Part shown: in pieces, positions 2,698-20,121 of the stretch | How the letters are laid out: each line of letters begins with the position of its first letter | Numbering within the stretch: the first letter of the stretch is position 1 | Assembly (NCBI RefSeq): GCF_003790525.1 | Contig: NZ_CP033636.1 | Direction: 5' to 3' (one strand) | DNA length: 64,000 nt | DNA from: Escherichia coli | Lineage (GTDB): Bacteria > Pseudomonadota > Gammaproteobacteria > Enterobacterales > Enterobacteriaceae | Notes under the pieces: generated by a model | Database searches by the model: none | What the model saw: only the letters and a program-made list of their open reading frames with translations | Told to the model about the DNA's origin: nothing | Made by a program: the position numbers and the translations under genes

Positions 2698-3534
2698 CTA
2701 GTATGACGTCTGTCGCACCTGCTTGATCGCGGCCGCGATAGCTAGATCGCGTTGCTCCTCTTCTCCATCCGCGTTCCAAGCTGCGGAAAGGCACCCATAA
2801 GCGTACGCCTGGTCGAGCAGGCGACGCGGATCGACGTCCAGCGCACGAGAGAATGCGTCCGCCATCTGTGCAATGCGTCTAGGATCGAGACAAAGGTCGT
2901 CTCTGTCAGCCGGATCGTAGAACATATTGGCGGCGCCAAAGCCCACTTCACCGACCAGACCGACGGGATCTATCACCAGCCAGCCGCGACTGGAGAACAT
3001 GATGTTTTCATGATGCAGATCGCCATGTAGCCCACGCAGTTCCGAGGCATTGCTCATCATTTGATCGGCTATAATCGCCGCGTGGACGTAGTCAGTTTGA
3101 CAACCTGCGTTTTGATCATCGCGCGCCCGCTGAAACAAAGCTGCAAAGCGATCCCGGATCGGGAGAAGGGCAGAAGGCAGGGGTTCCTCAGATGCGGCAT
3201 ACAGCTTCGCCATTAGTTCCGCTGCAATTTCGGTCGCCTGGTAGTCGCCGTGCTCGGCAACGATGTGAGAGAGCATTCGCTCCCCGGCATATTCGAGCAA
3301 CATCAGATTGTTCTCACGACCGAGCAACCGGACTGCTCCCCTCCCATTGCGCCATACCAGATAGTCGGCCCCGCGCAGTTCATCAGCAATGTCTTCTATA
3401 GGTTTCAATTCCTTGACGATTGCAGGAGTCCCGTCTGGCAATGAAACTTTCCAAACGAGGCTGGAAAAGGTGTCCGCAATGAGAACAGGTTGCGAAACGT
3501 GCCAATGAGCAGGAAAAACAGGCGGCATGAACAT
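2698..3534 (-). CDS. strB: aminoglycoside 6-phosphotransferase APH(6)-Id (streptomycin resistance)
   Basis: Translation MFMPPVFPAHWHVSQPVLIADTFSSLVWKVSLPDGTPAIVK... (278 aa from internal ATG); overlaps strA stop by 1 nt. Confidence 0.95.
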   Translation of the reverse strand: MFMPPVFPAHWHVSQPVLIADTFSSLVWKVSLPDGTPAIVKELKPIEDIADELRGADYLVWRNGRGAVRLLGRENNLMLLEYAGERMLSHIVAEHGDYQATEIAAELMAKLYAASEEPLPSALLPIRDRFAALFQRARDDQNAGCQTDYVHAAIIADQMMSNASELRGLHGDLHHENIMFSSRGWLVIDPVGLVGEVGFGAANMFYDPADRDDLCLDPRRIAQMADAFSRALDVDPRRLLDQAYAYGCLSAAWNADGEEEQRDLAIAAAIKQVRQTSY

Positions 3535-4337
3535 CAACCCCAAGTCAGAGGGTCCAATCGCAGATAGAAGGCAAGGCGTTCGCGGTCGGGGGCTTCGATC
3601 CCCAATACATTGAATAGGACAGCGAAGGCGCGCTCTGCTTCATCTGGCGCTGCCCAGTTCTCTTCGGCGTTAGCAATCATGAGTGCCAAATCGGCATAGC
3701 GATCTGCTGTTCCGAGCCGCCCAAGGTCGATCAGACCCGTGCATTGAAGAGTTTTAGGGTCCACCATGAAGTTCGGCATGCAGGGATCACCATGGCAAAC
3801 AACCATATCGGTGCGCTCTTGGTCGAGCCGCACCGGTAGCTCTCGTTCGACACGAGCCAAAAGATCGAGCTGCGGCGTACTCTTGTCCTCGTCCGGTAAG
3901 AAGTCGGGATTGACGGCATTGCGGGACACCACATCAACGGCGCGTCCGAACATTCGCGACAGCCTGCGCTCAAACGGACATTGATCAACCGATAGGCTGT
4001 GAACAGCGCCAAGTTGCTGCCCCATTGACGGCCACGCTTTGAGCAAATCCGCTCCAGACAGATCAGCCGCCGGTACTCCCGGAATTGCCGTTATCACCAA
4101 GCATGCACCCTCCTGTTCCTCCTGCCAGTTGATCACCTCGGGGCAAGCCACACCTCGACCTTTGAGCCAAATGAGGCGGTCACGCTCTCCAGCGAGCTCA
4201 CCGCGGCGGGAAGCAGGTGCGATTTTCGCGAAGGCATGCCCGTCACCACGTCGAAAAACAAAATCACCAGATTCTCCGCCTCTGACAGGCAACCAGTCAG
4301 AATGCGATTCACCAAAAAAAATATTAGTTCGATTCAA
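3534..4337 (-). CDS. strA: aminoglycoside 3''-phosphotransferase APH(3'')-Ib (streptomycin resistance), TTG start
   Basis: 267-aa product LNRTNIFFGESHSDWLPVRGGESGDFVFRRGDGHAFAKIAPASRRGELAGERDRLIWLKG... within longer ORF. Confidence 0.95.
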   Translation of the reverse strand: MNRTNIFFGESHSDWLPVRGGESGDFVFRRGDGHAFAKIAPASRRGELAGERDRLIWLKGRGVACPEVINWQEEQEGACLVITAIPGVPAADLSGADLLKAWPSMGQQLGAVHSLSVDQCPFERRLSRMFGRAVDVVSRNAVNPDFLPDEDKSTPQLDLLARVERELPVRLDQERTDMVVCHGDPCMPNFMVDPKTLQCTGLIDLGRLGTADRYADLALMIANAEENWAAPDEAERAFAVLFNVLGIEAPDRERLAFYLRLDPLTWG

Positions 4338-4629
4338 TGGAGGTTCCTTCAGTTTTCTGATGAAGCGCGGAGGTGGCTCAACCTGCGAAAAGAAACGAGT
4401 TGCTATGGACTTGCACCGGTTGTGTTCCGGTCTATCTCTCATTTTAAGCGGCTTTTTTCTCAAATGCCACCGGCGATTTCCAGCCGAGTGTTGAATGTCT
4501 TCGGCGTGGATTATAAAAGCCATTTACCCATATAATGCGCCTACTTATCAGCCTTTGGGACGTTGGGACGGTATTTTTCACTATATACCCCCAAGTTTTT
4601 AGACATGAAAAAAGGGTAATGACTCCAAC

Positions 4630-5133
4630 TTATTGATAGTGTTTTATGTTCAGATAATGCCCGATGACTTTGTCATGCAGCTCCACCGATTTTGAGAACG
4701 ACAGCGACTTCCGTCCCAGCCGTGCCAGGTGCTGCCTCAGATTCAGGTTATGCCGCTCAATTCGCTGCGTATATCGCTTGCTGATTACGTGCAGCTTTCC
4801 CTTCAGGCGGGATTCATACAGCGGCCAGCCATCCGTCATCCATATCACCACGTCAAAGGGTGACAGCAGGCTCATAAGACGCCCCAGCGTCGCCATAGTG
4901 CGTTCACCGAATACGTGCGCAACAACCGTCTTCCGGAGCCTGTCATACGCGTAAAACAGCCAGCGCTGGCGCGATTTAGCCCCGACGTATCCCCACTGTT
5001 CGTCCATTTCCGCGCAGACGATGACGTCACTGCCCGGCTGTATGCGCGAGGTTACCGACTGCGGCCTGAGTTTTTTAAGTGACGTAAAATCGTGTTGAGG
5101 CCAACGCCCATAATGCGGGCTGTTGCCCGGCAT
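4630..5133 (-). CDS. insB: IS1 InsB
   Basis: 167-aa [61 protein letters not shown]... Confidence 0.9.
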
Positions 5134-5327
5134 CCAACGCCATTCATGGCCATATCAATGATTTTCTGGTGCGTACCGGGTTGAGAAGCGGTGTAAGTGA
5201 ACTGCAGTTGCCATGTTTTACGGCAGTGAGAGCAGAGATAGCGCTGATGTCCGGCGGTGCTTTTGCCGTTACGCACCACCCCGTCAGTAGCTGAACAGGA
5301 GGGACAGCTGATAGAAACAGAAGCCAC
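5052..5327 (-). CDS. insA: IS1 InsA
   Basis: 91-aa [46 protein letters not shown]... Confidence 0.9.
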
Positions 5328-5382
5328 TGGAGCACCTCAAAAACACCATCATACACTAAATCAGTAAGTTGGCAGCATCACC

Positions 5383-5561
5383 CGACGCACTTTGCGCCGA
5401 ATAAATACCTGTGACGGAAGATCACTTCGCAGAATAAATAAATCCTGGTGTCCCTGTTGATACCGGGAAGCCCTGGGCCAACTTTTGGCGAAAATGAGAC
5501 GTTGATCGGCACGTAAGAGGTTCCAACTTTCACCATAATGAAATAAGATCACTACCGGGCG
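5383..5561. promoter_or_regulatory. Tn9 catA1 upstream/promoter remnant (cat gene itself absent)
   Basis: ...ACGTAAGAGGTTCCAACTTTCACCATAATGAAATAAGATCACTACCGGGCG matches the region between IS1 and cat in Tn9/pACYC184-type sequences; ends at the IS10 junction. Confidence 0.6.
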
Positions 5562-6120
5562 CTGAGAGATCCCCTCATAATTTCCCCAAAGCGTAACCAT
5601 GTGTGAATAAATTTTGAGCTAGTAGGGTTGCAGCCACGAGTAAGTCTTCCCTTGTTATTGTGTAGCCAGAATGCCGCAAAACTTCCATGCCTAAGCGAAC
5701 TGTTGAGAGTACGTTTCGATTTCTGACTGTGTTAGCCTGGAAGTGCTTGTCCCAACCTTGTTTCTGAGCATGAACGCCCGCAAGCCAACATGTTAGTTGA
5801 AGCATCAGGGCGATTAGCAGCATGATATCAAAACGCTCTGAGCTGCTCGTTCGGCTATGGCGTAGGCCTAGTCCGTAGGCAGGACTTTTCAAGTCTCGGA
5901 AGGTTTCTTCAATCTGCATTCGCTTCGAATAGATATTAACAAGTTGTTTGGGTGTTCGAATTTCAACAGGTAAGTTAGTTGCTAGAACCCATGGCTCCTT
6001 TGCCGACGCTGAGTAGATTTTAGGTGACGGGTGGTGACAATGAGTCCGTGTCGAGCGCTGATTTTTTCGGCCTTTAGAGCGAGATTTATACAATAGAATT
6101 TGGCATGAGATTGGATTGCT
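5562..6120 (-). mobile_element. IS10 fragment (inside end plus 3' part of transposase gene), truncated by IS26
   Basis: CTGAGAGATCCCCTCATAATTTCCCC end; 172-aa ORF 5575-6093 matches IS10 transposase C-terminus (...EETFRDLKSPAYGLGLRHSRTSSSERFDIMLLIALML...). Confidence 0.8.
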
Positions 6121-6940
6121 GGCACTGTTGCAAAGTTAGCGATGAGGCAGCCTTTTGTCTTATTCAAAGGCCTTACATTTCAAAAACTCTGCTTACCAGG
6201 CGCATTTCGCCCAGGGGATCACCATAATAAAATGCTGAGGCCTGGCCTTTGCGTAGTGCACGCATCACCTCAATACCTTTGATGGTGGCGTAAGCCGTCT
6301 TCATGGATTTAAATCCCAGCGTGGCGCCGATTATCCGTTTCAGTTTGCCATGATCGCATTCAATCACGTTGTTCCGGTACTTAATCTGTCGGTGTTCAAC
6401 GTCAGACGGGCACCGGCCTTCGCGTTTGAGCAGAGCAAGCGCGCGACCATAGGCGGGCGCTTTATCCGTGTTGATGAATCGCGGGATCTGCCACTTCTTC
6501 ACGTTGTTGAGGATTTTACCCAGAAACCGGTATGCAGCTTTGCTGTTACGACGGGAGGAGAGATAAAAATCGACAGTGCGGCCCCGGCTGTCGACGGCCC
6601 GGTACAGATACGCCCAGCGGCCATTGACCTTCACGTAGGTTTCATCCATGTGCCACGGGCAAAGATCGGAAGGGTTACGCCAGTACCAGCGCAGCCGTTT
6701 TTCCATTTCAGGCGCATAACGCTGAACCCAGCGGTAAATCGTGGAGTGATCGACATTCACTCCGCGTTCAGCCAGCATCTCCTGCAGCTCACGGTAACTG
6801 ATGCCGTATTTGCAGTACCAGCGTACGGCCCACAGAATGATGTCACGCTGAAAATGCCGGCCTTTGAATGGGTTCATGTGCAGCTCCATCAGCAAAAGGG
6901 GATGATAAGTTTATCACCACCGACTATTTGCAACAGTGCC
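6121..6940 (-). mobile_element. IS26 copy 1 (820 bp)
   Basis: 14-bp terminal IRs GGCACTGTTGCAAA / TTTGCAACAGTGCC at exact 820-bp spacing; flanks ggattgct / acttgacc (no target duplication). Confidence 0.95.
6173..6877 (-). CDS. tnpA: IS26 transposase Tnp26 (IS6 family), G184 reference form
   Basis: 234-aa [35 protein letters not shown]... with ...[10 protein letters not shown]... Confidence 0.95.
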   Translation of the reverse strand: MNPFKGRHFQRDIILWAVRWYCKYGISYRELQEMLAERGVNVDHSTIYRWVQRYAPEMEKRLRWYWRNPSDLCPWHMDETYVKVNGRWAYLYRAVDSRGRTVDFYLSSRRNSKAAYRFLGKILNNVKKWQIPRFINTDKAPAYGRALALLKREGRCPSDVEHRQIKYRNNVIECDHGKLKRIIGATLGFKSMKTAYATIKGIEVMRALRKGQASAFYYGDPLGEMRLVSRVFEM

Positions 6941-6984
6941 ACTTGACCTGATAGTTTGGCTGTGAGCAATTATGTGCTTAGTGC
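6941..6984 (-). other. First ~44 bp of class 1 integron 3'-conserved segment, truncated by IS26
   Basis: Reverse complement GCACTAAGCACATAATTGCTCACAGCCAAACTATCAGGTCAAGT follows a GTTAGAT cassette boundary (6985-6991). Confidence 0.6.
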
Positions 6985-7029
6985 ATCTAACGTCAAAATC
7001 AGCGGCGCGTTTTTATGCGTCCGCTGGAT

Positions 7030-7851
7030 TTACTTGTTGTGCGGCGTCGCAGACTCATTGAACAACCTTTTTGCCTGCGCAATTACAGTTCTCGGAAGCT
7101 CGATATTCAGAGGTTCTGTCACGCTCTTGAACAATTCGAGACTCCACGTCCACGTTTGATGATAGGCTGCACATAGTGCTCTTGGTTCTGCACTGCTTGT
7201 GCATGCCAGATAGCGATTATACGAGTCCTCCGAGATATCCTTTTCGAGCGCGCGTGAAGGTGTCGGCCAGTGGTCTGTTGCCCCTTCGTGGAGTCGAACC
7301 AGCTTGAGTAGGTTTTCATGTGCTTTGCTGAGCAAAGCCCAGGCGCGAGCGTACTCTCCCCGATTTAAAAGATTGGCCCCAAAGAGCATCAGGCTGATGA
7401 GGTTCAACACAAGCCCTTCCACCAGCGGCGCGCCTTCACGTATCGGGGGACCGCCCACGAGAGCGCTTGCGTACCTTGACAACTCTCCTGATCGGTCCAA
7501 CAAAACAGCCGCCTCAAGCGAGGGAAACCACCCATAGCCTTGCCAAGTGGAAATGACCGGTATGTCCGATTTTCGCATGAAATGGAATTCACCGCGAATG
7601 CCGTTTTCAAAAAGTGCGGTGTGGTGGCCGAAGTCGTCCGGAAAGTAAGCAGCAACCGGACTTACGGCATTAAGCCACGAGCGCTGATCGAAATTTTCAA
7701 AATGGTCATCCTGGATGAACACTGCGAATTCGATATCAGAGAACTCGTCACCCTCTCCGATAGCAAATGAGCCGAACATCAATGCCGCGATTATTCGTGC
7801 ATCCTCATGACAACCTTCCTTGAAGAGTTCGATCATTTTCAGTTGAAGCAT
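7030..7851 (-). CDS. lnu(F): lincosamide nucleotidyltransferase Lnu(F) (gene cassette 2 of integron 1)
   Basis: 273-aa MLQLKMIELFKEGCHEDARIIAALMFGSFAIGEGDEFSDIEFAVFIQDD...; cassette context after aadA2 attC. Confidence 0.85.
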   Translation of the reverse strand: MLQLKMIELFKEGCHEDARIIAALMFGSFAIGEGDEFSDIEFAVFIQDDHFENFDQRSWLNAVSPVAAYFPDDFGHHTALFENGIRGEFHFMRKSDIPVISTWQGYGWFPSLEAAVLLDRSGELSRYASALVGGPPIREGAPLVEGLVLNLISLMLFGANLLNRGEYARAWALLSKAHENLLKLVRLHEGATDHWPTPSRALEKDISEDSYNRYLACTSSAEPRALCAAYHQTWTWSLELFKSVTEPLNIELPRTVIAQAKRLFNESATPHNK

Positions 7852-7923
7852 AGAAATATCCTTTTATTGAAGCCACAGATTATGAGGAAAGGTATACGCA
7901 GATTTTTGTTTTTTTTCGTCAGC

Positions 7924-7983
7924 ACAACGCCGGAGTTAAGCCGCCGCGCGTAGCGCGGTCGGCTTGAACGAATTGTTAGACAT
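7924..7983 (-). other. attC (59-be) of aadA2 cassette
   Basis: Reverse complement GTCTAACAATTCGTTCAAGCCGACCGCGCTACGCGCGGCGGCTTAACTCCGGCGTT, imperfect palindrome typical of aadA attC. Confidence 0.6.
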
Positions 7984-8774
7984 TATTTGCCGATTACCTT
8001 GGTGATCTCGCCTTTCACGTAGTGGACAAATTCTTCCAACTGATCTGCGCGCGAGGCCAAGCGATCTTCTTCTTGTCCAAGATAAGCCTGTCTAGCTTCA
8101 AGTATGACGGGCTGATACTGGGCCGGCAGGCGCTCCATTGCCCAGTCGGCAGCGACATCCTTCGGCGCGATTTTGCCGGTTACTGCGCTGTACCAAATGC
8201 GGGACAACGTAAGCACTACATTTCGCTCATCGCCAGCCCAGTCGGGCGGCGAGTTCCATAGCGTTAAGGTTTCATTTAGCGCCTCAAATAGATCCTGTTC
8301 AGGAACCGGATCAAAGAGTTCCTCCGCCGCTGGACCTACCAAGGCAACGCTATGTTCTCTTGCTTTTGTCAGCAAGATAGCCAGATCAATGTCGATCGTG
8401 GCTGGCTCGAAGATACCTGCAAGAATGTCATTGCGCTGCCATTCTCCAAATTGCAGTTCGCGCTTAGCTGGATAACGCCACGGAATGATGTCGTCGTGCA
8501 CAACAATGGTGACTTCTACAGCGCGGAGAATCTCGCTCTCTCCAGGGGAAGCCGAAGTTTCCAAAAGGTCGTTGATCAAAGCTCGCCGCGTTGTTTCATC
8601 AAGCCTTACGGTCACCGTAACCAGCAAATCAATATCGCTGTATGGCTTCAGGCCGCCATCCACTGCGGAGCCGTACAAATGCACGGCCAGCAACGTTGAT
8701 TCCAGATGGCGCTCAATGACGCTTAGCACCTCTGATAGTTGGTTCGAAATTTCGATGGTCACCGCTACCCTCAT
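7983..8774 (-). CDS. aadA2: aminoglycoside (3'') adenylyltransferase AadA2 (streptomycin/spectinomycin), cassette 1 of integron 1
   Basis: MRVAVTIEISNQLSEVLSVIERHLESTLLAVHLYGSAVDGGLKPYSDIDLLVTVTVRLDE...; start chosen at internal ATG of longer ORF that reads through attI1. Confidence 0.9.
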   Translation of the reverse strand: MRVAVTIEISNQLSEVLSVIERHLESTLLAVHLYGSAVDGGLKPYSDIDLLVTVTVRLDETTRRALINDLLETSASPGESEILRAVEVTIVVHDDIIPWRYPAKRELQFGEWQRNDILAGIFEPATIDIDLAILLTKAREHSVALVGPAAEELFDPVPEQDLFEALNETLTLWNSPPDWAGDERNVVLTLSRIWYSAVTGKIAPKDVAADWAMERLPAQYQPVILEARQAYLGQEEDRLASRADQLEEFVHYVKGEITKVIGK

Positions 8775-8922
8775 GATGTCTAACTTTGTTTTAGGGCGAC
8801 TGCCCTGCTGCGTAACATCGTTGCTGCTCCATAACATCAAACATCGACCCACGGCGTAACGCGCTTGCTGCTTGGATGCCCGAGGCATAGACTGTACCCC
8901 AAAAAAACAGTCATAACAAGCC
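8775..8922. other. attI1 recombination region of integron 1 (approximate)
   Basis: Lies between intI1 start (8923) and first cassette; contains the ORF-11-like leader translated as ...PRASKQQARYAVGRCLMLWSSNDVTQQGSRPKTKL. Confidence 0.55.
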
Positions 8923-9720
8923 ATGAAAACCGCCACTGCGCCGTTACCACCGCTGCGTTCGGTCAAGGTTCTGGACCAGTTGCGTGAGCGCATACGCTAC
9001 TTGCATTACAGCTTACGAACCGAACAGGCTTATGTCCACTGGGTTCGTGCCTTCATCCGTTTCCACGGTGTGCGTCACCCGGCAACCTTGGGCAGCAGCG
9101 AAGTCGAGGCATTTCTGTCCTGGCTGGCGAACGAGCGCAAGGTTTCGGTCTCCACGCATCGTCAGGCATTGGCGGCCTTGCTGTTCTTCTACGGCAAGGT
9201 GCTGTGCACGGATCTGCCCTGGCTTCAGGAGATCGGAAGACCTCGGCCGTCGCGGCGCTTGCCGGTGGTGCTGACCCCGGATGAAGTGGTTCGCATCCTC
9301 GGTTTTCTGGAAGGCGAGCATCGTTTGTTCGCCCAGCTTCTGTATGGAACGGGCATGCGGATCAGTGAGGGTTTGCAACTGCGGGTCAAGGATCTGGATT
9401 TCGATCACGGCACGATCATCGTGCGGGAGGGCAAGGGCTCCAAGGATCGGGCCTTGATGTTACCCGAGAGCTTGGCACCCAGCCTGCGCGAGCAGCTGTC
9501 GCGTGCACGGGCATGGTGGCTGAAGGACCAGGCCGAGGGCCGCAGCGGCGTTGCGCTTCCCGACGCCCTTGAGCGGAAGTATCCGCGCGCCGGGCATTCC
9601 TGGCCGTGGTTCTGGGTTTTTGCGCAGCACACGCATTCGACCGATCCACGGAGCGGTGTCGTGCGTCGCCATCACATGTATGACCAGACCTTTCAGCGCG
9701 CCTTCAAACGTGCCGTAGAA
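8923..9720 (+). pseudogene. intI1: class 1 integron integrase intI1, 3'-truncated by IS26 (about 266 of 337 codons retained)
   Basis: [44 protein letters not shown]... reading frame runs into IS26 IR at 9721. Confidence 0.9.
9010..9038 (-). promoter_or_regulatory. Pc cassette promoter, weak PcW configuration (-35 TGGACA, 17-bp spacer, -10 TAAGCT)
   Basis: Reverse strand reads TGGACATAAGCCTGTTCGGTTCGTAAGCT inside intI1 5' region. Confidence 0.6.
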
Positions 9721-10540
9721 GGCACTGTTGCAAAGTTAGCGATGAGGCAGCCTTTTGTCTTATTCAAAGGCCTTACATTTCAAAAACTCTGCTTACCAGG
9801 CGCATTTCGCCCAGGGGATCACCATAATAAAATGCTGAGGCCTGGCCTTTGCGTAGTGCACGCATCACCTCAATACCTTTGATGGTGGCGTAAGCCGTCT
9901 TCATGGATTTAAATCCCAGCGTGGCGCCGATTATCCGTTTCAGTTTGCCATGATCGCATTCAATCACGTTGTTCCGGTACTTAATCTGTCGGTGTTCAAC
10001 GTCAGACGGGCACCGGCCTTCGCGTTTGAGCAGAGCAAGCGCGCGACCATAGGCGGGCGCTTTATCCGTGTTGATGAATCGCGGGATCTGCCACTTCTTC
10101 ACGTTGTTGAGGATTTTACCCAGAAACCGGTATGCAGCTTTGCTGTTACGACGGGAGGAGAGATAAAAATCGACAGTGCGGCCCCGGCTGTCGACGGCCC
10201 GGTACAGATACGCCCAGCGGCCATTGACCTTCACGTAGGTTTCATCCATGTGCCACGGGCAAAGATCGGAAGGGTTACGCCAGTACCAGCGCAGCCGTTT
10301 TTCCATTTCAGGCGCATAACGCTGAACCCAGCGGTAAATCGTGGAGTGATCGACATTCACTCCGCGTTCAGCCAGCATCTCCTGCAGCTCACGGTAACTG
10401 ATGCCGTATTTGCAGTACCAGCGTACGGCCCACAGAATGATGTCACGCTGAAAATGCCGGCCTTTGAATGGGTTCATGTGCAGCTCCATCAGCAAAAGGG
10501 GATGATAAGTTTATCACCACCGACTATTTGCAACAGTGCC
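9721..10540 (-). mobile_element. IS26 copy 2 (820 bp)
   Basis: Exact IS26 IRs; flanks ccgtagaa / attctcac (no target duplication); truncates intI1. Confidence 0.95.
9773..10477 (-). CDS. tnpA: IS26 transposase Tnp26, G184 form
   Basis: Identical 234-aa product to copy 1. Confidence 0.95.
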
Positions 10541-10829
10541 ATTCTCACATGCGATCTCGAGTAGCCAGTTGTGGAAAACCGACATAAACATCCCCTGTTA
10601 CCCTGAAACTCTACTCACCATTTTTTCATAATTATATACAAACAGCCAGAAAGGCTGTTACAGGCGATTTGATCTGCAACCTATTGGTTAAATTAATGTA
10701 TCAAAAACGATGGTTTCTGTGACACATCCCTATAAGCAGTTGCCTATACAATAAAACGCTCTCCGGCTGTAACAAAACCCGTTACAGTATCAATACAACA
10801 AAAACGATGTAACAAAATAGGGTGGCAAA

Positions 10830-10976
10830 ATGATAATCGGCTATGCGCGTAAATCGACACATCTTCAGGATGTAACGCATCAGGTTGATGAACTGACAAA
10901 AGCGGGTTGCGAGCAAATCTATCATGAACAGATCTCACGCGGCGGCACTAAACGCGCCAAAAATGGTGCCCCGGAA
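10830..10976 (+). pseudogene. serine recombinase (resolvase/invertase family) 5' fragment, truncated by IS26
   Basis: MIIGYARKSTHLQDVTHQVDELTKAGCEQIYHEQISRGG... resembles N-terminus of Hin/Gin/TnpR-type recombinases; upstream region carries repeated GTTACAG/TGTAACA motifs. Confidence 0.6.
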
Positions 10977-12193
<1,217 letters not shown>

Positions 12194-12363
12194 TACGCCT
12201 ATTTTTATAGGTTAATGTCATGATAATAATGGTTTCTTAGACGTCAGGTGGCACTTTTCGGGGAAATGTGCGCGGAACCCCTATTTGTTTATTTTTCTAA
12301 ATACATTCAAATATGTATCCGCTCATGAGACAATAACCCTGGTAAATGCTTCAATAATATTGA

Positions 12364-13236
<873 letters not shown>

Positions 13237-13345
13237 CTGTCAGACCAAGTTTACTCATATATACTTTAGATTGATTTAAAACTTCATTTTTAATTTAAAA
13301 GGATCTAGGTGAAGATCCTTTTTGATAATCTCATGACCAAAATCC

Positions 13346-13383
13346 CTTAACGTGAGTTTTCGTTCCACTGAGCGTCAGACCCC
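13346..13383 (-). repeat. Tn3/Tn2 38-bp terminal inverted repeat (IRR) downstream of blaTEM
   Basis: CTTAACGTGAGTTTTCGTTCCACTGAGCGTCAGACCCC. Confidence 0.9.
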
Positions 13384-13997
13384 GTATATCGCTTGCTGAT
13401 TACGTGCAGCTTTCCCTTCAGGCGGGATTCATACAGCGGCCAGCCATCCGTCATCCATATCACCACGTCAAAGGGTGACAGCAGGCTCAGAAGACGCTCC
13501 AGTGTGGCCAGAGTGCGTTCACCGAAAACGTGCGCCACAACTGTCCTCCGTATCCTGTCATACGCGTAAAACAGCCAGCGCTGACGTGATTTAGCACCGA
13601 CGTAGCCCCACTGTTCGTCCATTTCAGCGCAGACAATCACATCACTGCCCGGTTGTATGCGCGAGGTTACCGACTGCGGCCTGAGTTTTTTAAGTGACGT
13701 AAAACCGTGTTGAGGCCAACGCCCATAATGCGGGCAGTTGCCCGGCATCCAACGCCATTCATGGCCATATCAATGATTTTCTGGTGCGTACCGGGTTGAG
13801 AAGCGGTGTAAGTGAACTGCAGTTGCCATGTTTTACGGCAGTGAGAGCAGAGATAGCGCTGGTGTCCGGCAGTGCTTTTGCCGTTACGCACCACCCCGTC
13901 AGTAGCTGAACAGGAGGGACAGCTGATAGAAACAGAAGCCACTGGAGCACCTCAAAAACACCATCATACACTAAATCAGTAAGTTGGCAGCATCACC
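13384..13997 (-). mobile_element. IS1 fragment (614 bp; insB 3' end and right IR missing), abutting Tn3 IRR
   Basis: Starts inside insB (GTATATCGCTTGCTGATTACGTGCAGC...) and ends with IS1 left IR ...ATCAGTAAGTTGGCAGCATCACC. Confidence 0.85.
13667..13942 (-). CDS. insA: IS1 InsA (within truncated IS1)
   Basis: 91-aa ORF identical in most positions to insA of the complete IS1 at 5052-5327. Confidence 0.85.
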
Positions 13998-14043
13998 CGA
14001 TGCAGCTTTCGTCAATCATGACAGTTATGAGTTTTCCGGTTAC

Positions 14044-14367
14044 TTATCCATTTTTGCCAGCGTGTTCCGCAACATCTGTTTTACTGTTTACACAGCACTC
14101 TTCACGTAAGAATTCGATGATAGCTTCCAGTATTTCGTATTGAGAGACACACATGAGCGTTCGACTCTCCCGGTTTTGTGTGACGAGCCCTACTGATACC
14201 AGGGCTGAAATATGATGACTTAACGTTGATGAGGGAATGCCAAGCTGCTTTTGCAATTCACCTACAGGCAAACCTTGTTCTCCAGCTTTTACAAGATGTT
14301 TGAATATGAACAAACGGGTCGGGTGACCCAGCTCTTTTAGTGCTTTAGCTACTTCTTCCAGTTGCAT
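14044..14367 (-). CDS. arsR: ArsR/SmtB-family metalloregulatory transcriptional repressor
   Basis: 107-aa MQLEEVAKALKELGHPTRLFIFKHLVKAGEQGLPVGELQKQLGIPSSTLSHHISALVSVGLV... winged-HTH signature; divergent from permease gene. Confidence 0.75.
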   Translation of the reverse strand: MQLEEVAKALKELGHPTRLFIFKHLVKAGEQGLPVGELQKQLGIPSSTLSHHISALVSVGLVTQNRESRTLMCVSQYEILEAIIEFLREECCVNSKTDVAEHAGKNG

Positions 14368-14472
14368 GTGACAACCCTCTGTCTAATGATATTTCGATAA
14401 TACCAGAAATATCTTGACCAGAATTATATTTCGATTATTCTAGAAACGTAGATTTTGTCAAGAGGGTTTAGT

Positions 14473-15606
14473 ATGAATAGTTGGATTTCTATGCTGCAAG
14501 ATGCCGCAGAGATGTTTTTGTTTTTGGCCGTCGAGCTATCTTTGCTGTTTATTGTCATCAGTGCCGGTGTGAGCCTGATAAGGCAAAAGGTCCCGGACCA
14601 TAAAATCCAGCAATTGATAGGGGCGAAAAAAGGAAAAGGCTACCTGCTGGCCTCGTTGTTGGGAGCCGTTACCCCTTTCTGTAGTTGCTCAACAATTCCA
14701 ATGCTACGAGGGTTGTTGTCGGCGAAAGCAGGGTTTGGTCCGACACTCACTTTTTTGTTTGTTTCACCGTTGCTTAATCCCATTATCGTGGGGTTAATGT
14801 GGGTTACCTTTGGCTGGAAAGTAACTTTGTTGTACGCGATCATCGCTGCCGGTGTCTCAGTCCTTGCCAGTATCGTATTGGATTTACTAGGATTTGAACG
14901 TCATATTGTTGATCACAAAAACTCAGCATCAAGTGGTTGCACCACGAAATGCGATGATTCCGAAGCTTCGGTAAAAACGTCGGCGGGTTCCAGTTGTTGC
15001 AGCACTAGCTCGACTCAATTGCCTTTAAAAACGAGTTGCTGTACTTCATCAGCGAACCCCATAATTAACTTAAGGACGGTAAAGAACGAGCAGAACGTAT
15101 CAGCGTGTTGTTCATCAATATCATCTGAACAACCAGCTGTTAGCTGTTGCAGCAGCGAGAATCTGGGCAATGTGAATCTCACAACGAATACCACCTCTGG
15201 CCCAATAAAGTTAGCTATGAAAGATGCCTTACAGCAGTTTAAGGATGTTCTGCCTTATCTTTTGTTAAGTGTATTAATAGGTTCATTTATTTATGGCTTT
15301 ATCCCTTCAGAGTGGATTGCAGCTCATGCCGGAGCAGATAATCCCTTAGCCATACCGCTGAGTGCAGTTGTTGGTATTCCGTTGTATATCCGCGCAGAGG
15401 CAGTGATACCACTTGCATCAGTGCTGATGACTAAAGGAATGGGCCTGGGGGCATTAATGGCCTTGATAATCGGTAGTGCTGGAGCGAGTTTGACAGAAGT
15501 AATACTGCTTAAATCAATGTTCAGAATGCCTATGATAGTCGCTTTTCTGACAGTAATCCTGGGTATGGCCATACTTATGGGGTATCTGACCCAATTGCTT
15601 TTTTAA
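14473..15606 (+). CDS. arsP: ArsP-like permease (putative organoarsenical efflux permease) with Cys-rich central insertion
   Basis: Contains TPFCSCS motif (AVTPFCSCSTIPMLRG) recalled as diagnostic of ArsP permeases; multiple TM segments; ~90-aa Cys/Ser/Thr-rich low-complexity segment; SD AGAGGG 6 bp upstream of ATG 14473. Confidence 0.7.
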   Translation: MNSWISMLQDAAEMFLFLAVELSLLFIVISAGVSLIRQKVPDHKIQQLIGAKKGKGYLLASLLGAVTPFCSCSTIPMLRGLLSAKAGFGPTLTFLFVSPLLNPIIVGLMWVTFGWKVTLLYAIIAAGVSVLASIVLDLLGFERHIVDHKNSASSGCTTKCDDSEASVKTSAGSSCCSTSSTQLPLKTSCCTSSANPIINLRTVKNEQNVSACCSSISSEQPAVSCCSSENLGNVNLTTNTTSGPIKLAMKDALQQFKDVLPYLLLSVLIGSFIYGFIPSEWIAAHAGADNPLAIPLSAVVGIPLYIRAEAVIPLASVLMTKGMGLGALMALIIGSAGASLTEVILLKSMFRMPMIVAFLTVILGMAILMGYLTQLLF

Positions 15607-15630
15607 TAATAATAGTAAGGGTCTTCTGGT

Positions 15631-16450
15631 GGCACTGTTGCAAATAGTCGGTGGTGATAAACTTATCATCCCCTTTTGCTGATGGAGCTGCACATGAACC
15701 CATTCAAAGGCCGGCATTTTCAGCGTGACATCATTCTGTGGGCCGTACGCTGGTACTGCAAATACGGCATCAGTTACCGTGAGCTGCAGGAGATGCTGGC
15801 TGAACGCGGAGTGAATGTCGATCACTCCACGATTTACCGCTGGGTTCAGCGTTATGCGCCTGAAATGGAAAAACGGCTGCGCTGGTACTGGCGTAACCCT
15901 TCCGATCTTTGCCCGTGGCACATGGATGAAACCTACGTGAAGGTCAATGGCCGCTGGGCGTATCTGTACCGGGCCGTCGACAGCCGGGGCCGCACTGTCG
16001 ATTTTTATCTCTCCTCCCGTCGTAACAGCAAAGCTGCATACCGGTTTCTGGGTAAAATCCTCAACAACGTGAAGAAGTGGCAGATCCCACGATTCATCAA
16101 CACGGATAAAGCGCCCGCCTATGGTCGCGCGCTTGCTCTGCTCAAACGCGAAGGCCGGTGCCCGTCTGACGTTGAACACCGACAGATTAAGTACCGGAAC
16201 AACGTGATTGAATGCGATCATGGCAAACTGAAACGGATAATCAACGCCACGCTGGGATTTAAATCCATGAAGACGGCTTACGCCACCATCAAAGGTATTG
16301 AGGTGATGCGTGCACTACGCAAAGGCCAGGCCTCAGCATTTTATTATGGTGATCCCCTGGGCGAAATGCGCCTGGTAAGCAGAGTTTTTGAAATGTAAGG
16401 CCTTTGAATAAGACAAAAGGCTGCCTCATCGCTAACTTTGCAACAGTGCC
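15631..16450 (+). mobile_element. IS26 copy 4 (820 bp), G184N variant type, flanked by 8-bp direct repeat CTTCTGGT
   Basis: Exact IS26 IRs; 15623-15630 and 16451-16458 both CTTCTGGT (target site duplication of a simple insertion). Confidence 0.95.
15694..16398 (+). CDS. tnpA: IS26 transposase, G184N variant
   Basis: ...[15 protein letters not shown]... Confidence 0.9.
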   Translation: MNPFKGRHFQRDIILWAVRWYCKYGISYRELQEMLAERGVNVDHSTIYRWVQRYAPEMEKRLRWYWRNPSDLCPWHMDETYVKVNGRWAYLYRAVDSRGRTVDFYLSSRRNSKAAYRFLGKILNNVKKWQIPRFINTDKAPAYGRALALLKREGRCPSDVEHRQIKYRNNVIECDHGKLKRIINATLGFKSMKTAYATIKGIEVMRALRKGQASAFYYGDPLGEMRLVSRVFEM

Positions 16451-16559
16451 CTTCTGGTTTCATGTTGAACAAAGAAGACCCTTTAGCTTCTGTAATCCAT
16501 TTAATCAGTCTGAATGAAATAGATTATAAATTCTGCTCTGCATACCTGCTTAACCAAAG

Positions 16560-16930
16560 TCTCATGATTCTGATTGTCGGTACAGTGCCTGAATGTGGCA
16601 TATCTGGGAGGTGCTGTACCCTGTTGCATCTGCCGTTTCTTTCTTGACCTGCCGGTAGTAAAGTACCTTTTGATGCCGTTCCTGAGCGACCTGTTTTCCC
16701 TGATATTTACCCAGCGTATGTGCGAGTTCAACTCCCTGCTTTTGGCGCTGGCGGTCAATTTGCTCGACCAGCAAAATATCATTGCGGTGACTGTCCATCA
16801 GTAAGCGACCCAGTTCCGGTCGGTCAAGTTTTGTACCGCTGATATTCTCCCGGTAGTAACTGGCTATTTTATGCCCCCGCTCCTAAACAAACTGCTCCAG
16901 CATCTCTTTTGCCCGATCGGTGAACTGATC
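16560..16930 (-). pseudogene. degenerate serine recombinase (resolvase-like) remnant upstream of tnpA
   Basis: Minus-strand translation ...YYRENISGTKLDRPELGRLLMDSHRNDILLVEQIDR... resembles the SG.K.DRP.L..LL...GD.LVV..LDRL core of serine recombinases but frame is interrupted. Confidence 0.35.
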
Positions 16931-17133
16931 TTCCGTCTATGCCCTTAAATAAGTGCTGATGAACATTTTTTCACCGCATTACCGCATTTAGGTTATTGCA
17001 TTTAATCTATCGCATATAGGCTATGTCGTTCATTGTGTGCCGTCACGTTTAGATTATGGTGTCAGGGTATACCCTTATGCGATAACCATTTTTGTTAAAA
17101 ATAACGCATCGAATAATTTATGAGGAAAACTAT

Positions 17134-20121
17134 ATGGCAAGGAGGCAGATTCTTTCTCTGTCGGAAAGAGAATCATTACTGGCATTACCGGACGATGAGT
17201 TAACGCTGACCCGAATGGCCTATTTCAGTGAGCATGATCTGGCGCTTATCAGTGCTCACCGTAAACCCGCCAGCCGTTTTGGTTTTGCCGTCCTTCTTTG
17301 CTATCTGAAAAATGTCGGCTTTGCCCCGGATAAAAAAATCTCTCCCTCTGATGCGCTGCTGAAGCATATCGCCAGCAGGCTAAAGCTTACCGGGGATCTC
17401 TGGCCTGCTTACCTTTCCGGCCGGGATACGACCCGGCGTGAGCATTTAACCGAACTGTACCGCTATCTTGGCGTAAAGGCGTTCACCGGCAAAATACAGC
17501 AGGACTGTATTACGCACCTGTTATCGATGGCGACGCGCACCGATAAAGGCATTCTCCTAGCCGAAGAGTTACTTGTCTATCTCCGGCAGAACAACGTGAT
17601 AATCCCCGCGATTGATGTCGTGGAGCGTACCTGTGCTGAAGTCATGGCAGGCGGCGATAAAATCGTATTTCAGACCCTGAATGCCCCGTTAACTCCGGCT
17701 CACAGGGATGCCCTGGATCATTTACTTGAGTCATCAGATAATCAGCCTTCCAGGCTGACATGGCTTCTGCAACCGCCGGGTAAAATCAATGGTAAGAACG
17801 TGCTGCAACATCTTGATCGGCTCAGCAGCATTGAATCGCTGGCATTACCTGAAGGTATAGATCGTACCATTCACCAGAACCGGTTGCTGAAACTGGCGCG
17901 GGAAGGCCGAAAGATGAGTAGCCGGGATTTGACCCGATTTTCAGCTGCCCGGCGTCATGCGATCCTGGTGTGCGTGCTGGAAGAAGCCAGAGCCACACTG
18001 ACAGACGAAGTGATTGAGCTGCATGAGCGAATGCTGAATAGTCTTTTCAGCAAAGCCAAACGAACACAGGCTGAGCGCCTTCAGCAGACCGGAAAGCTGA
18101 TCCAGTCAAAACTGAGGCAGTACATCGATGTCGGTCAGGCGCTGTCTGATGCCCGTGATTCCGGTGGCGATCCCTGGCTCGCAATAGAAAACATACTCCC
18201 ATGGGCTGAATTTGTCGCCAGTCTGGATGAAACACGCCATCTCGCCAGAAAAAATAATTTTGACCCGCTGCATATTATTACCGAGAAATACAGCACATTA
18301 CGGAAATATGCCCCACGCATGTTGTCCGCTTTACAGTTAGTCGCAACCCCGGCAGCGCAACCTCTGGCTGATGCACTGGTTGTGATCAAGGATATGTACC
18401 GGAAGCAGTCACGTAAAGTTCCGGCGGCAGCGCCGCTTGAGTTTGTCCCTGAAAGCTGGCGCAAGGTGGTGATTACACCTGTGGGTATTGACCGGCAGTA
18501 CTATGAGTTTTGTGCACTCAGCGAGCTTAAGGGGGCGTTGCGCTCCGGGGATATCTGGGTTAAAGGCTCGCGCCGCTACAAAAATTTTGATGATTACCTC
18601 ATACCCGAGAAGGACTTTGACAAACTCACACCGGCACTGCCACTGCCCGTATCTGCTGATTATCATGAGTACATTACCAGCCGTATGACCCTGCTTCAGT
18701 CCAGACTTGAAGAGGTCAATGCCATGGCTGCCCTTGGTGAACTGCCCGATGTGGAAATATCCGACAGGGGCGTAAAAGTCTCTCCGCTGGATAACTGCGT
18801 TCCGGCGCAGGTTTCACCGCTGGCAGAGCTGGTTTACAGCATGCTACCGCGACCTAAAATCACGGAAATTCTCGATGAGGTAAACAGCTGGACGACGTTT
18901 ACCCGACATTTTTCGCATATAAAAAATGACATTACCCGTCCCGATACCCGCTTGCTCCTCACCACCATTCTTGCGGATGGCATCAATCTTGGCCTGACCA
19001 AAATGGCAGAAGCCTGCCCCGGGAGCACCAAATCATCACTCGAAGATATTCAGGCATGGTACATCCGTGACGAAACCTATTCAGCCGCTCTTGCAGAGCT
19101 GGTAAATGCGCAGGGGAAAAGACCGTTGGCGGCATTTTGGGGAGACGGAACAACGTCATCATCAGATGGACAAAATTTCAGAACCGGCAGCTCAGGCCGC
19201 TACGCAGGGCAGGTTAACCCGAAATATGGGCAAGAGCCTGGACGTCAGTTTTATACCCATATTTCGGATCAATACAGCCCGTTTTACACCTGCATAATCA
19301 GTCGGGTCAGGGATTCAACCCATGTTCTCGATGGCTTGCTGTACCACGAAAGCGACCTGGAAATCAGGGAACATTACACCGATACCGCTGGTTTCACCGA
19401 TCATGTCTTTGCCCTGATGCATCTGTTGGGATTTGCGTTCTGTCCGCGAATCAGGGATCTCCACGACAAAAAACTGTTTATCAAAGGGAAAGCAGAGAAA
19501 TACCCGGCGCTTCAGTCACTGATATCAACGACCAGCCTGAATCTGAAAGAGATCGAAATCCACTGGCGTGAAGTGCTGCGTCTGGCAACCTCGATAAAGC
19601 AGGGAACCGTGACGGCATCCCTGATGCTGAAAAAGCTTGCCAGCTATCCCAAGCAAAACGGACTTGCCAAAGCACTGAGAGAAATTGGCCGCATTGAGCG
19701 AACCCTGTTTATGCTCGACTGGTTCCGCGACCCGGCTCTGCGTCGGCGGGTACAGGCGGGGCTGAATAAAGGCGAAGCCCGTAACGCGCTGGCGCGTGCG
19801 GTATTTATGCACCGACTGGGAGAAATCAGGGACAGAAAACCGGAAAATCAGAGCTATCGCGCCAGTGGACTGACGCTGCTGACGGCTGCCATATCCCTGT
19901 GGAATACCGTCTATATGGAAAGAGCGGTCGATGCCCTGAAGCGTAAAGGGGTGAAGATCAACGAGCAACTGCTGTCGCATTTGTCGCCGTTGGGCTGGGA
20001 ACACATCAATCTGACAGGTGATTATATCTGGAAAAGCAACCGGATACCGGCTTCTGGTAAGTTTCGTCGGCTAAGACCAGCTAAAGTCGAAAGGTCAAAA
20101 AACAGCCTTAACGTACAATAA
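17134..20121 (+). CDS. tnpA: Tn3-family (Tn21-subgroup-like) transposase TnpA, apparently intact
   Basis: 995-aa [44 protein letters not shown]... to ...[45 protein letters not shown]; SD GAGGA upstream; stop inside 38-bp IR. Confidence 0.9.
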   Translation: MARRQILSLSERESLLALPDDELTLTRMAYFSEHDLALISAHRKPASRFGFAVLLCYLKNVGFAPDKKISPSDALLKHIASRLKLTGDLWPAYLSGRDTTRREHLTELYRYLGVKAFTGKIQQDCITHLLSMATRTDKGILLAEELLVYLRQNNVIIPAIDVVERTCAEVMAGGDKIVFQTLNAPLTPAHRDALDHLLESSDNQPSRLTWLLQPPGKINGKNVLQHLDRLSSIESLALPEGIDRTIHQNRLLKLAREGRKMSSRDLTRFSAARRHAILVCVLEEARATLTDEVIELHERMLNSLFSKAKRTQAERLQQTGKLIQSKLRQYIDVGQALSDARDSGGDPWLAIENILPWAEFVASLDETRHLARKNNFDPLHIITEKYSTLRKYAPRMLSALQLVATPAAQPLADALVVIKDMYRKQSRKVPAAAPLEFVPESWRKVVITPVGIDRQYYEFCALSELKGALRSGDIWVKGSRRYKNFDDYLIPEKDFDKLTPALPLPVSADYHEYITSRMTLLQSRLEEVNAMAALGELPDVEISDRGVKVSPLDNCVPAQVSPLAELVYSMLPRPKITEILDEVNSWTTFTRHFSHIKNDITRPDTRLLLTTILADGINLGLTKMAEACPGSTKSSLEDIQAWYIRDETYSAALAELVNAQGKRPLAAFWGDGTTSSSDGQNFRTGSSGRYAGQVNPKYGQEPGRQFYTHISDQYSPFYTCIISRVRDSTHVLDGLLYHESDLEIREHYTDTAGFTDHVFALMHLLGFAFCPRIRDLHDKKLFIKGKAEKYPALQSLISTTSLNLKEIEIHWREVLRLATSIKQGTVTASLMLKKLASYPKQNGLAKALREIGRIERTLFMLDWFRDPALRRRVQAGLNKGEARNALARAVFMHRLGEIRDRKPENQSYRASGLTLLTAAISLWNTVYMERAVDALKRKGVKINEQLLSHLSPLGWEHINLTGDYIWKSNRIPASGKFRRLRPAKVERSKNSLNVQ

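Follow-up and report, generated by a model that had tools for sequence, protein, structure and literature searches.

The 64,000-nucleotide stretch of Escherichia coli DNA analyzed here (contig NZ_CP033636.1, hereafter the window) carries at positions 14473 to 15606 a permease gene of the ArsP/PF03773 family that, together with a divergently transcribed regulator of the ArsR/SmtB type (arsR2), forms an intact, self-regulated two-gene module. The gene belongs to a known family of transporters, of which it is an uncharacterized yet extremely widespread member. From the repeated association of its close homologues with ars operons and from the features of its regulator, we propose with moderate confidence that the module exports trivalent arsenicals and is induced by them. 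The permease also contains a long central loop rich in serine, threonine and cysteine, and this variable loop, enriched in vicinal cysteines, is a recurrent and fast-evolving trait of the family rather than an insertion specific to this gene. The parts of the module are as follows.

14473..15606, + strand: permease of 377 amino acids, ArsP family (PF03773), RefSeq WP_001089729.1 "permease"
14671-14691, + strand: TPFCSCS motif (residues 67 to 73), located by sequence and at a helix break in the AlphaFold2 (AF2) model
14911..15198, + strand: central Ser/Thr/Cys/Asn-rich linker (residues ~147 to 242), from composition, the AF2 model and the distribution of lysine and arginine (K/R)
14044..14367, - strand: arsR2, a 107-amino-acid ArsR/SmtB repressor with C73 and a C-terminal CC pair (EECCVNS)
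14368..14472, no strand assigned: divergent promoter/operator region of 105 bp, from a promoter scan and conserved palindromes
14389-14412 and 14426-14446, no strand assigned: ATTTC-N10-GAAA(T) palindromes, from sequence conservation
14414-14419 (-35, TTGACC) and 14436-14441 (-10, TATTCT), + strand: permease promoter predicted by the promoter scan
14461 (TTGACA) to 14434 (AATAAT), - strand: arsR2 promoter predicted by the promoter scan

The permease belongs to the ArsP/PF03773 family. It matched Pfam ArsP_1 over practically the whole model (E value of 6.7e-53, 180 bits, model positions 4 to 293 of 294). Both the open reading frame (ORF) and the ArsP-like identity given to it in the original prediction, a reading made from the sequence alone, are confirmed. 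It also carries the C(S/T)C motif with tPF upstream, in the form TPFCSCS, that characterizes ArsP "cluster 2." The ATG at 14473, with AGAGG upstream, is the RefSeq start in identical plasmid copies; a mechanical ORF list starts the gene at a TTG six codons upstream (14455). All 12 cysteines of the protein are found either in the CSC motif (C70 and C72), which is its sole CxC, or in the central loop. In a limited literature search, we found no paper on this permease clade.

The module is widespread. The 1563-bp pair was present in 647 PLSDB plasmids (615 of them at ≥80% coverage), mostly from Escherichia and Salmonella, and the pair or a relative was found in 2386 of 5426 complete E. coli genomes, at 2248 chromosomal places (~84% identity) and 375 plasmid places, the gene being annotated always just as "permease." The arsenical role put forward in the original prediction is backed by recurrent synteny with ars operons. 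ArsP proteins are recognized functionally by their location in or beside an ars operon under ArsR control, and close homologues of the window permease show this arrangement in three ars operon types, although in the window itself only the ArsR partner is present. These ars-linked homologues are 69 to 84% identical to the window permease. In E. fergusonii and E. coli chromosomes, the pair lies directly after arsRBC, between arsC and yhiS/slp, and in Citrobacter it follows arsRDABC within a lambdoid prophage. In an IncI plasmid, which we take to be R64-like (NZ_CP010233.1, 26404-30308; locus L004), arsR2 is followed on the same strand by arsH, a sigma-70 gene, arsD and arsA, with the permease adjoining.

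The chromosomal version, a pair ~84% identical to that of the window with a permease of 333 amino acids, occupies the site between arsC and yhiS/slp in ~41% of complete E. coli genomes, and in the copies examined (L016 and L017), the DNA match to the window ends exactly at the start of the loop. In the Citrobacter loci (L011 to L013, positions 3230-9092), the full arsRDABC operon plus the pair appears as prophage cargo, between replication genes resembling those of DnaT and lambda P and the genes dinI/rusA. In L004, the gene between arsH and arsD codes for a sigma factor of the sigma-70 family, and past arsA there are a winged helix-turn-helix regulator, a TauE/SafE exporter and a GNAT acetyltransferase, followed by arsC.

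The regulator provides the second line of evidence. ArsR2 reached 63.2 bits against the NCBIfam ArsR/SmtB model NF033788 (curated cutoff of 55), so that the pairing with an ArsR family regulator, noticed already in the original prediction, is borne out. Its closest solved relative was AfArsR (6J05, E value of 1.8e-11), and the EECC stretch of ArsR2 aligns with ENCC of AfArsR, i.e., with the As(III) ligands Cys95 and Cys96. The type 2 site of AfArsR has a third ligand, Cys102, and ArsR2 contains no cysteine downstream from its CC pair (EECCVNSKTDVAEHAGKNG), leaving the Cys102 position without one. The same position lacks a cysteine in SpArsR, a regulator that responds to methylarsenite [MAs(III)] but not to arsenite (PMC11868830, PMC13236881). 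On the other hand, ArsR2 has a third cysteine, C73, at a position where AfArsR has none, and all the partner regulators examined keep both C73 and the CC pair, down to 55% identity. Because of this conserved C73, sensing could be either two-coordinate or atypical three-coordinate.

The intergenic region is consistent with self-regulation. The predicted arsR2 promoter is strong (11/12 matches in the promoter scan), and the two palindromes bracket and overlap the predicted permease promoter as well as overlapping that of arsR2. Both palindromes are kept in E. coli, E. fergusonii, Citrobacter, Aeromonas and a metagenome homologue whose permease is 56% identical, and they are probably the operators of ArsR2.

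Matches of ArsR2 to sulfur sensors raise a different reading, in which the module would handle reactive sulfur or thiol-reactive organics (persulfides, organotins or electrophiles) under a redox/thiol sensor of the BigR/YgaV type, the linkage to ars genes being incidental. ArsR2 indeed matches YgaV (3cuo, E value of 3.7e-08) and BigR (3pqj, E value of 4.1e-07; NF040642, 38 bits). However, such matches are far under the curated cutoffs (38 versus 155 bits for BigR) and AfArsR remains the best one, none of the sulfur genes of BigR operons (rhodanese or persulfide dioxygenase) was seen adjoining the pair, and the linkage to ars operons has been found in at least three independent genomic settings. 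We regard this explanation as very improbable.

The sequence of the permease is less informative about its substrate. The original prediction had taken TPFCSCS as a mark of organoarsenical efflux permeases, but T67, P68, F69, C70, S71, C72 and S73 are each ≥90% conserved among 93 diverse homologues, some of them in non-ars contexts, and PFCSCST appears in nearly all of our diverse set (95 full-length representatives of 50%-identity clusters), whatever the genomic context. In the literature, C(S/T)C is described for all ars operon homologues of ArsP, with tPF upstream in cluster 2 (Yang et al. 2015, PMC4435449), and the CSC motif is common to the SO_0444 Cu/Zn efflux and SaoE families (10.1101/2022.07.06.499078). 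The motif is therefore family-wide, not specific to ArsP, which is an outcome that the original prediction had named as refuting it, and says nothing about the substrate; the arsenical conclusion survives because it is backed by the other evidence.

Two characterized branches, SO_0444 from Shewanella oneidensis (NF033936) and SaoE (NF040736), share with the window permease the PF03773 fold family and the CSC motif. The SO_0444 model was the best NCBIfam match (E value of 1.9e-33), with 116 bits against a cutoff of 300, and the SaoE model gave 88 bits against a cutoff of 325. As both scores are below the curated cutoffs, the permease is a member of neither family, and no sao genes were seen near it in the window or in the identical plasmid copies. 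The similarity to SO_0444 nevertheless suggests an alternative, namely, that the substrates exported are soft metal cations [Cu(I), Zn, Cd or Hg] and that the CC-rich loop is a cytoplasmic metal-binding region comparable to the His/Cys loops of CDF and P1B-type transporters. Regulators of the ArsR/SmtB type also sense Zn, Cd and Pb, and one CC-rich relative (P0139) is located beside PadR, a Metal_resist protein and a CDF transporter. SO_0444 itself is required for growth under Zn/Cu stress (PMC3219624), and the motif is found in both branches (10.1101/2022.07.06.499078). However, 116 bits is far under the cutoff of that family. SO_0444 is reportedly controlled by a regulator of the ZntR/MerR type (PMC3219624), whereas the window permease is paired with an AfArsR-like ArsR, the CC pair of which aligns with an arsenic site. 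Finally, the close homologues adjoin three ars operon types, and no metal cation genes, such as those for copper, zinc or mercury, were seen beside them. Taken together, this makes export of soft metal cations quite unlikely.

The closest functional reference for an arsenical exporter is ArsP from Campylobacter jejuni (TCDB 2.A.119), which carries out efflux of methylarsenite and trivalent roxarsone. The window permease shares with it the Pfam family (PF03773), the C(S/T)C membrane motif after TPF that is the signature of cluster 2 (PMC4435449), and a genetic linkage to an ArsR regulator and ars operons. The comparison runs via Campylobacterota relatives rather than the C. jejuni sequence itself, and these (including the Helicobacter pullorum permease) scored ~135 bits with 28 to 35% identity to the window permease. 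The Campylobacterota representatives in our set came only from Helicobacter and other Campylobacter species, and the cluster of C. jejuni ArsP was not identified among them; one candidate for it, P0261, has housekeeping genes and no ars genes around it. These relatives often have one CC in the central loop, in which they resemble the window permease, but the latter exceeds them by ~50 residues in the loop, where it has four CC pairs versus at most one. The regulators are also different, with a divergent arsR2 and an AfArsR-like C-terminal CC site in the window and an R773-type site (LCVCDL) in the H. pullorum neighbor. In that locus (L021, 5001-6314), the ArsP family permease is followed by the R773-type ArsR, from which it appears that the regulator class paired with ArsP family permeases differs by lineage.

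Several observations weigh against the export of trivalent arsenicals. The score against the SO_0444 model (116 bits) is about the same as that of the Campylobacterota relatives (~135 bits), and among Campylobacterota permeases arranged as arsP-arsR, the nearest one, that of H. pullorum, is only 28% identical (~28 to 33% over the comparisons made). In Aeromonas, as in most IncI1 plasmids, no ars genes accompany the pair, a fact that also speaks for the reactive sulfur explanation. Distant CC-rich relatives adjoin PadR and metal-related genes, and, with C73 present, ArsR2 could be selective for either MAs(III) or As(III). Many family members also have short loops free of cysteine and are presumably functional. 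Sequence by itself leaves the substrate undecided, and the case for arsenicals therefore rests on synteny and the regulator.

The original prediction had also drawn attention to a Cys/Ser/Thr-rich loop between the two membrane halves, with CC and CxC clusters. The loop and its four CC pairs stand, while there is no CxC within it. Its ~96 residues contain 24% S, 12.5% T, 10.4% C and 9.4% N, compared to 0.7% C and 7% S in the rest of the protein. The cysteines form a CxxxC (C156/C160) and CC pairs at 175/176, 189/190, 212/213 and 225/226, i.e., four pairs versus 0.86 expected in the shuffled loop (P = 0.004). The pairing of the loop cysteines is thus real and statistically nonrandom.

In an AF2 model built on 93 sequences (mean predicted local distance difference test score [pLDDT] of 82), the membrane core had values above 90 and residues ~155 to 240 had values of 40 to 47, which indicates that the loop is disordered. 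The model comprises helices 2-39, 52-66/71-83, 88-100/103-113 and 115-138 in the first half and 244-276, 293-304/308-320, 325-337/340-346 and 352-376 in the second (slashes mark breaks). Accordingly arranged, the permease would consist of two inverted repeats, each predicted to contain a long transmembrane helix, a re-entrant hairpin, a broken helix and a long helix; the internal repeat was weakly seen by BLASTP as a second high-scoring segment pair. Residues conserved in the family are found at the helix breaks (TPFCSCS, SPLLNP, Y305 and S339/E342), with TPFCSCS where helix 52-66 gives way to helix 71-83, at the first hairpin's tip. Among the 93 homologues, lysine plus arginine averaged 13.8 per protein on the predicted cytoplasmic segments (37-56, 79-88, 346-352 and the flanks of the central loop) and 2.1 on the predicted periplasmic N terminus, 112-117, 277-292, 319-325 and C terminus together. 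This distribution agrees with a predicted topology in which both ends of the protein are outside, the first hairpin (that of Cys70 and Cys72) is inserted from the cytoplasmic side and the central loop is probably cytoplasmic.

To follow the evolution of the loop, we used an alignment of 16 close relatives along with the diverse set of 95 representatives. In the close relatives, the membrane core was 81 to 96% identical to that of the window permease and the loop only 15 to 77%. Their lengths went from 322 to 377 amino acids, and the differences were all in the loop except for the shortened P0100. Every member of this clade keeps 6 to 10 loop cysteines and 2 to 4 CC pairs. Conserved cells in the loop alignment amounted to 108/120 in the columns where the window permease has cysteine versus 439/1010 in the other loop columns, a contrast exaggerated by the high C-C score of the alignment, while the cysteine counts per sequence are independent of the alignment. 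When the window allele was compared to a 377-amino-acid IncI allele (locus L003), the synonymous divergence (dS) differed little between core and loop (0.44 versus 0.42), but the ratio of nonsynonymous to synonymous divergence (dN/dS) rose from 0.048 for the core to 0.455 for the loop, with all ten loop cysteines retained. The loop in the close clade is therefore evolving ~10 times faster than the membrane core, and its cysteines are kept.

The same trait was found at larger distances. Loop length varied from 20 to 129 amino acids (median of 41) in the diverse set, 26 of the 95 having at least four loop cysteines, 32 at least one CC, 8 at least three CC, and 39 fewer than two cysteines. Cysteine made up 5.0% of loop residues versus 1.1% elsewhere, and there were 64 CC dipeptides in the loops against 14.4 ± 3.5 after shuffling, ~4.4-fold more, with a maximum of 26 in 2000 shuffles. 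The idea that the loop might be unique to the window allele can thus be discarded, since it is rich in Cys and CC in each of the 15 close relatives and about one-third of the distant representatives carry CC. Nor does it look like a recent repeat expansion, as had been suggested in the original prediction. Tandem Repeats Finder at score 30 detected nothing over 14300-15800, and a repeat search with seed 6 found as sole DNA repeats in the loop region matches of 12 to 17 nt of the AGTTGTTGCAGCA type (Ser-Cys-Cys-Ser), so that both a tandem repeat and a recent expansion are ruled out. We found no description of a cysteine-rich loop in the literature searched (with TPFCSCS and ArsP cysteine-rich loop as terms).

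Variation among plasmid alleles, read from the comparisons of L003 with L001 and of the window with L002, shows how the loop changes. A 359-amino-acid allele has lost 54 nt in frame between two copies of GTAAAAACG, and one CC pair with them, and a 345-amino-acid allele has a 96-nt in-frame deletion with the loss of two CC pairs. Direct repeats were sought as flanks of the 96-nt deletion as well, and none was clear; only the 54-nt deletion has them. Such 18- and 32-codon deletions in near-identical alleles could mean that the loop is simply a tolerant disordered linker without a specific function, its cysteine content being a by-product of, for example, slippage on TGTTGC short repeats. This possibility bears on the loop alone and is compatible with any of the substrate hypotheses. 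The ~10-fold higher dN/dS of the loop, the wide range of loop lengths in the family, the 39 of 95 representatives with fewer than two loop cysteines and the absence of any structure predicted by AF2 would all fit with it. However, the enrichment in cysteine and the excess of CC dipeptides, never reached in the shuffles, are against it, as is the close clade, which keeps 6 to 10 Cys and 2 to 4 CC while the other loop residues drop to 15 to 40% identity. To our knowledge, unconstrained cytoplasmic linkers are not normally rich in cysteine, and we have counted this too against a functionless linker, which we consider unlikely.

The mechanism that we favor for the export of trivalent arsenicals is the following. 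ArsR2 would repress both promoters and be freed when a trivalent arsenical binds its CC site, making the module an arsenical-inducible efflux unit that would complement ArsB or ArsAB. The likely substrates would be methylarsenite along with aromatic arsenicals in reduced form, for example, roxarsone(III), and possibly As(III)/Sb(III). The first hairpin would present Cys70 and Cys72 at its tip, and these might act as the thiol binding site from which the permease would move the arsenical outward, in an elevator-like transport as in the Ion Transporter superfamily (INDY/DASS and ArsB, with Pho90 and AbgT as further members). The ~96-residue loop would be a disordered cytoplasmic linker joining the two repeats, in which clear constraint seems to be confined to the vicinal cysteine pairs. 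Methylarsenite needs no more than two thiols, and these pairs may bind trivalent arsenicals and either feed the CSC site or modulate transport in a way similar to ArsD. We advance this specific arsenical-binding role of the loop tentatively, as a possibility that is less than even. In any case, the loop would be accessory rather than essential, because the CC pairs vary from two to four among near-identical alleles and many relatives are without them.

ArsD is a metallochaperone that hands As(III) to its transporter partner and has vicinal pairs at Cys12-13, Cys112-113 and Cys119-120. The repeated vicinal CC pairs, as ligands of a soft metalloid, are what it would have in common with the loop, and the analogy is only functional, as there is no sequence homology between them. 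Moreover, ArsD is a separate, soluble, folded protein (thioredoxin-like) that serves the ArsA ATPase, whereas the CC pairs in the window are part of the disordered linker of the permease itself.

The module of the window is enclosed by two insertion sequences (IS).

13347..13997, - strand: IS1 end (left boundary), with InsA/InsB-type ORFs at 13347-13942
15631..16450, + strand: IS26 (right boundary), 24 bp past the permease stop, with GGCACTGTTGCAAA at 15631 and a 240-amino-acid transposase ORF at 15676-16398

We take the terminal inverted repeat of IS1 to end at 13997, and we place the right end of IS26 at ~16450 on the assumption that this element has its usual 820 bp; the right boundary is annotated as IS26 in identical plasmid copies. 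The region in between (13998-15630) contains exactly two genes, and both of them and the whole intergenic region are intact. Copies identical to that of the window were found in multiresistance regions of IncHI2 plasmids, such as pNDM33-1 (NZ_MN915011.1), with the order IS26-blaTEM-1-IS1-arsR2-permease-IS26-Tn3 family tnpA. In IncI1/I-gamma plasmids, the pair belongs to the backbone, located just after repA. This is the native site of the pair, and the window copy, with its IS-flanked layout in IncHI2, is a 1.6-kb backbone fragment caught between IS1 and IS26. As anticipated in the original prediction, the gene escapes standard antimicrobial resistance screens. The AMRFinderPlus and RGI tracks of PLSDB left the permease unflagged, though arsC, blaTEM-1 and others were flagged in the same records.

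If the module does export methylarsenite and reduced roxarsone, E. coli and Salmonella from food animals would carry a common, unscreened determinant of organoarsenical resistance, sometimes physically inside multidrug resistance regions. The known categories of arsenic resistance are unchanged by these findings. A more speculative extension, to which we give rather little credence, is that the loop works as a built-in arsenical "fishing line," in which each CC pair would catch one trivalent (organo)arsenical and pass it to Cys70/Cys72, and indels (leaving two to four pairs) would tune the affinity or the substrate range. Were this so, in the IS26-bounded IncHI2 regions, many of them from livestock, organoarsenical feed additives could coselect antibiotic resistance by an unrecognized route. 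Conserved cysteine pairs in a disordered linker that otherwise drifts freely also offer a simple test case for a metalloid-capturing tether borne by a transporter.

The surroundings of the module in the window, from 6173 to 20121 and beyond, are an IncHI2-type multiresistance region with a layout that matches pNDM33-1. There are at least seven 240-amino-acid transposase ORFs of the IS26 type (at 6173, 9773, 11029, 15676, 42893, 49528 and 61548), as well as blaTEM-1 (12376-13236), a truncated resolvase (11792-12193) and a Tn3 family transposase (17092-20121).

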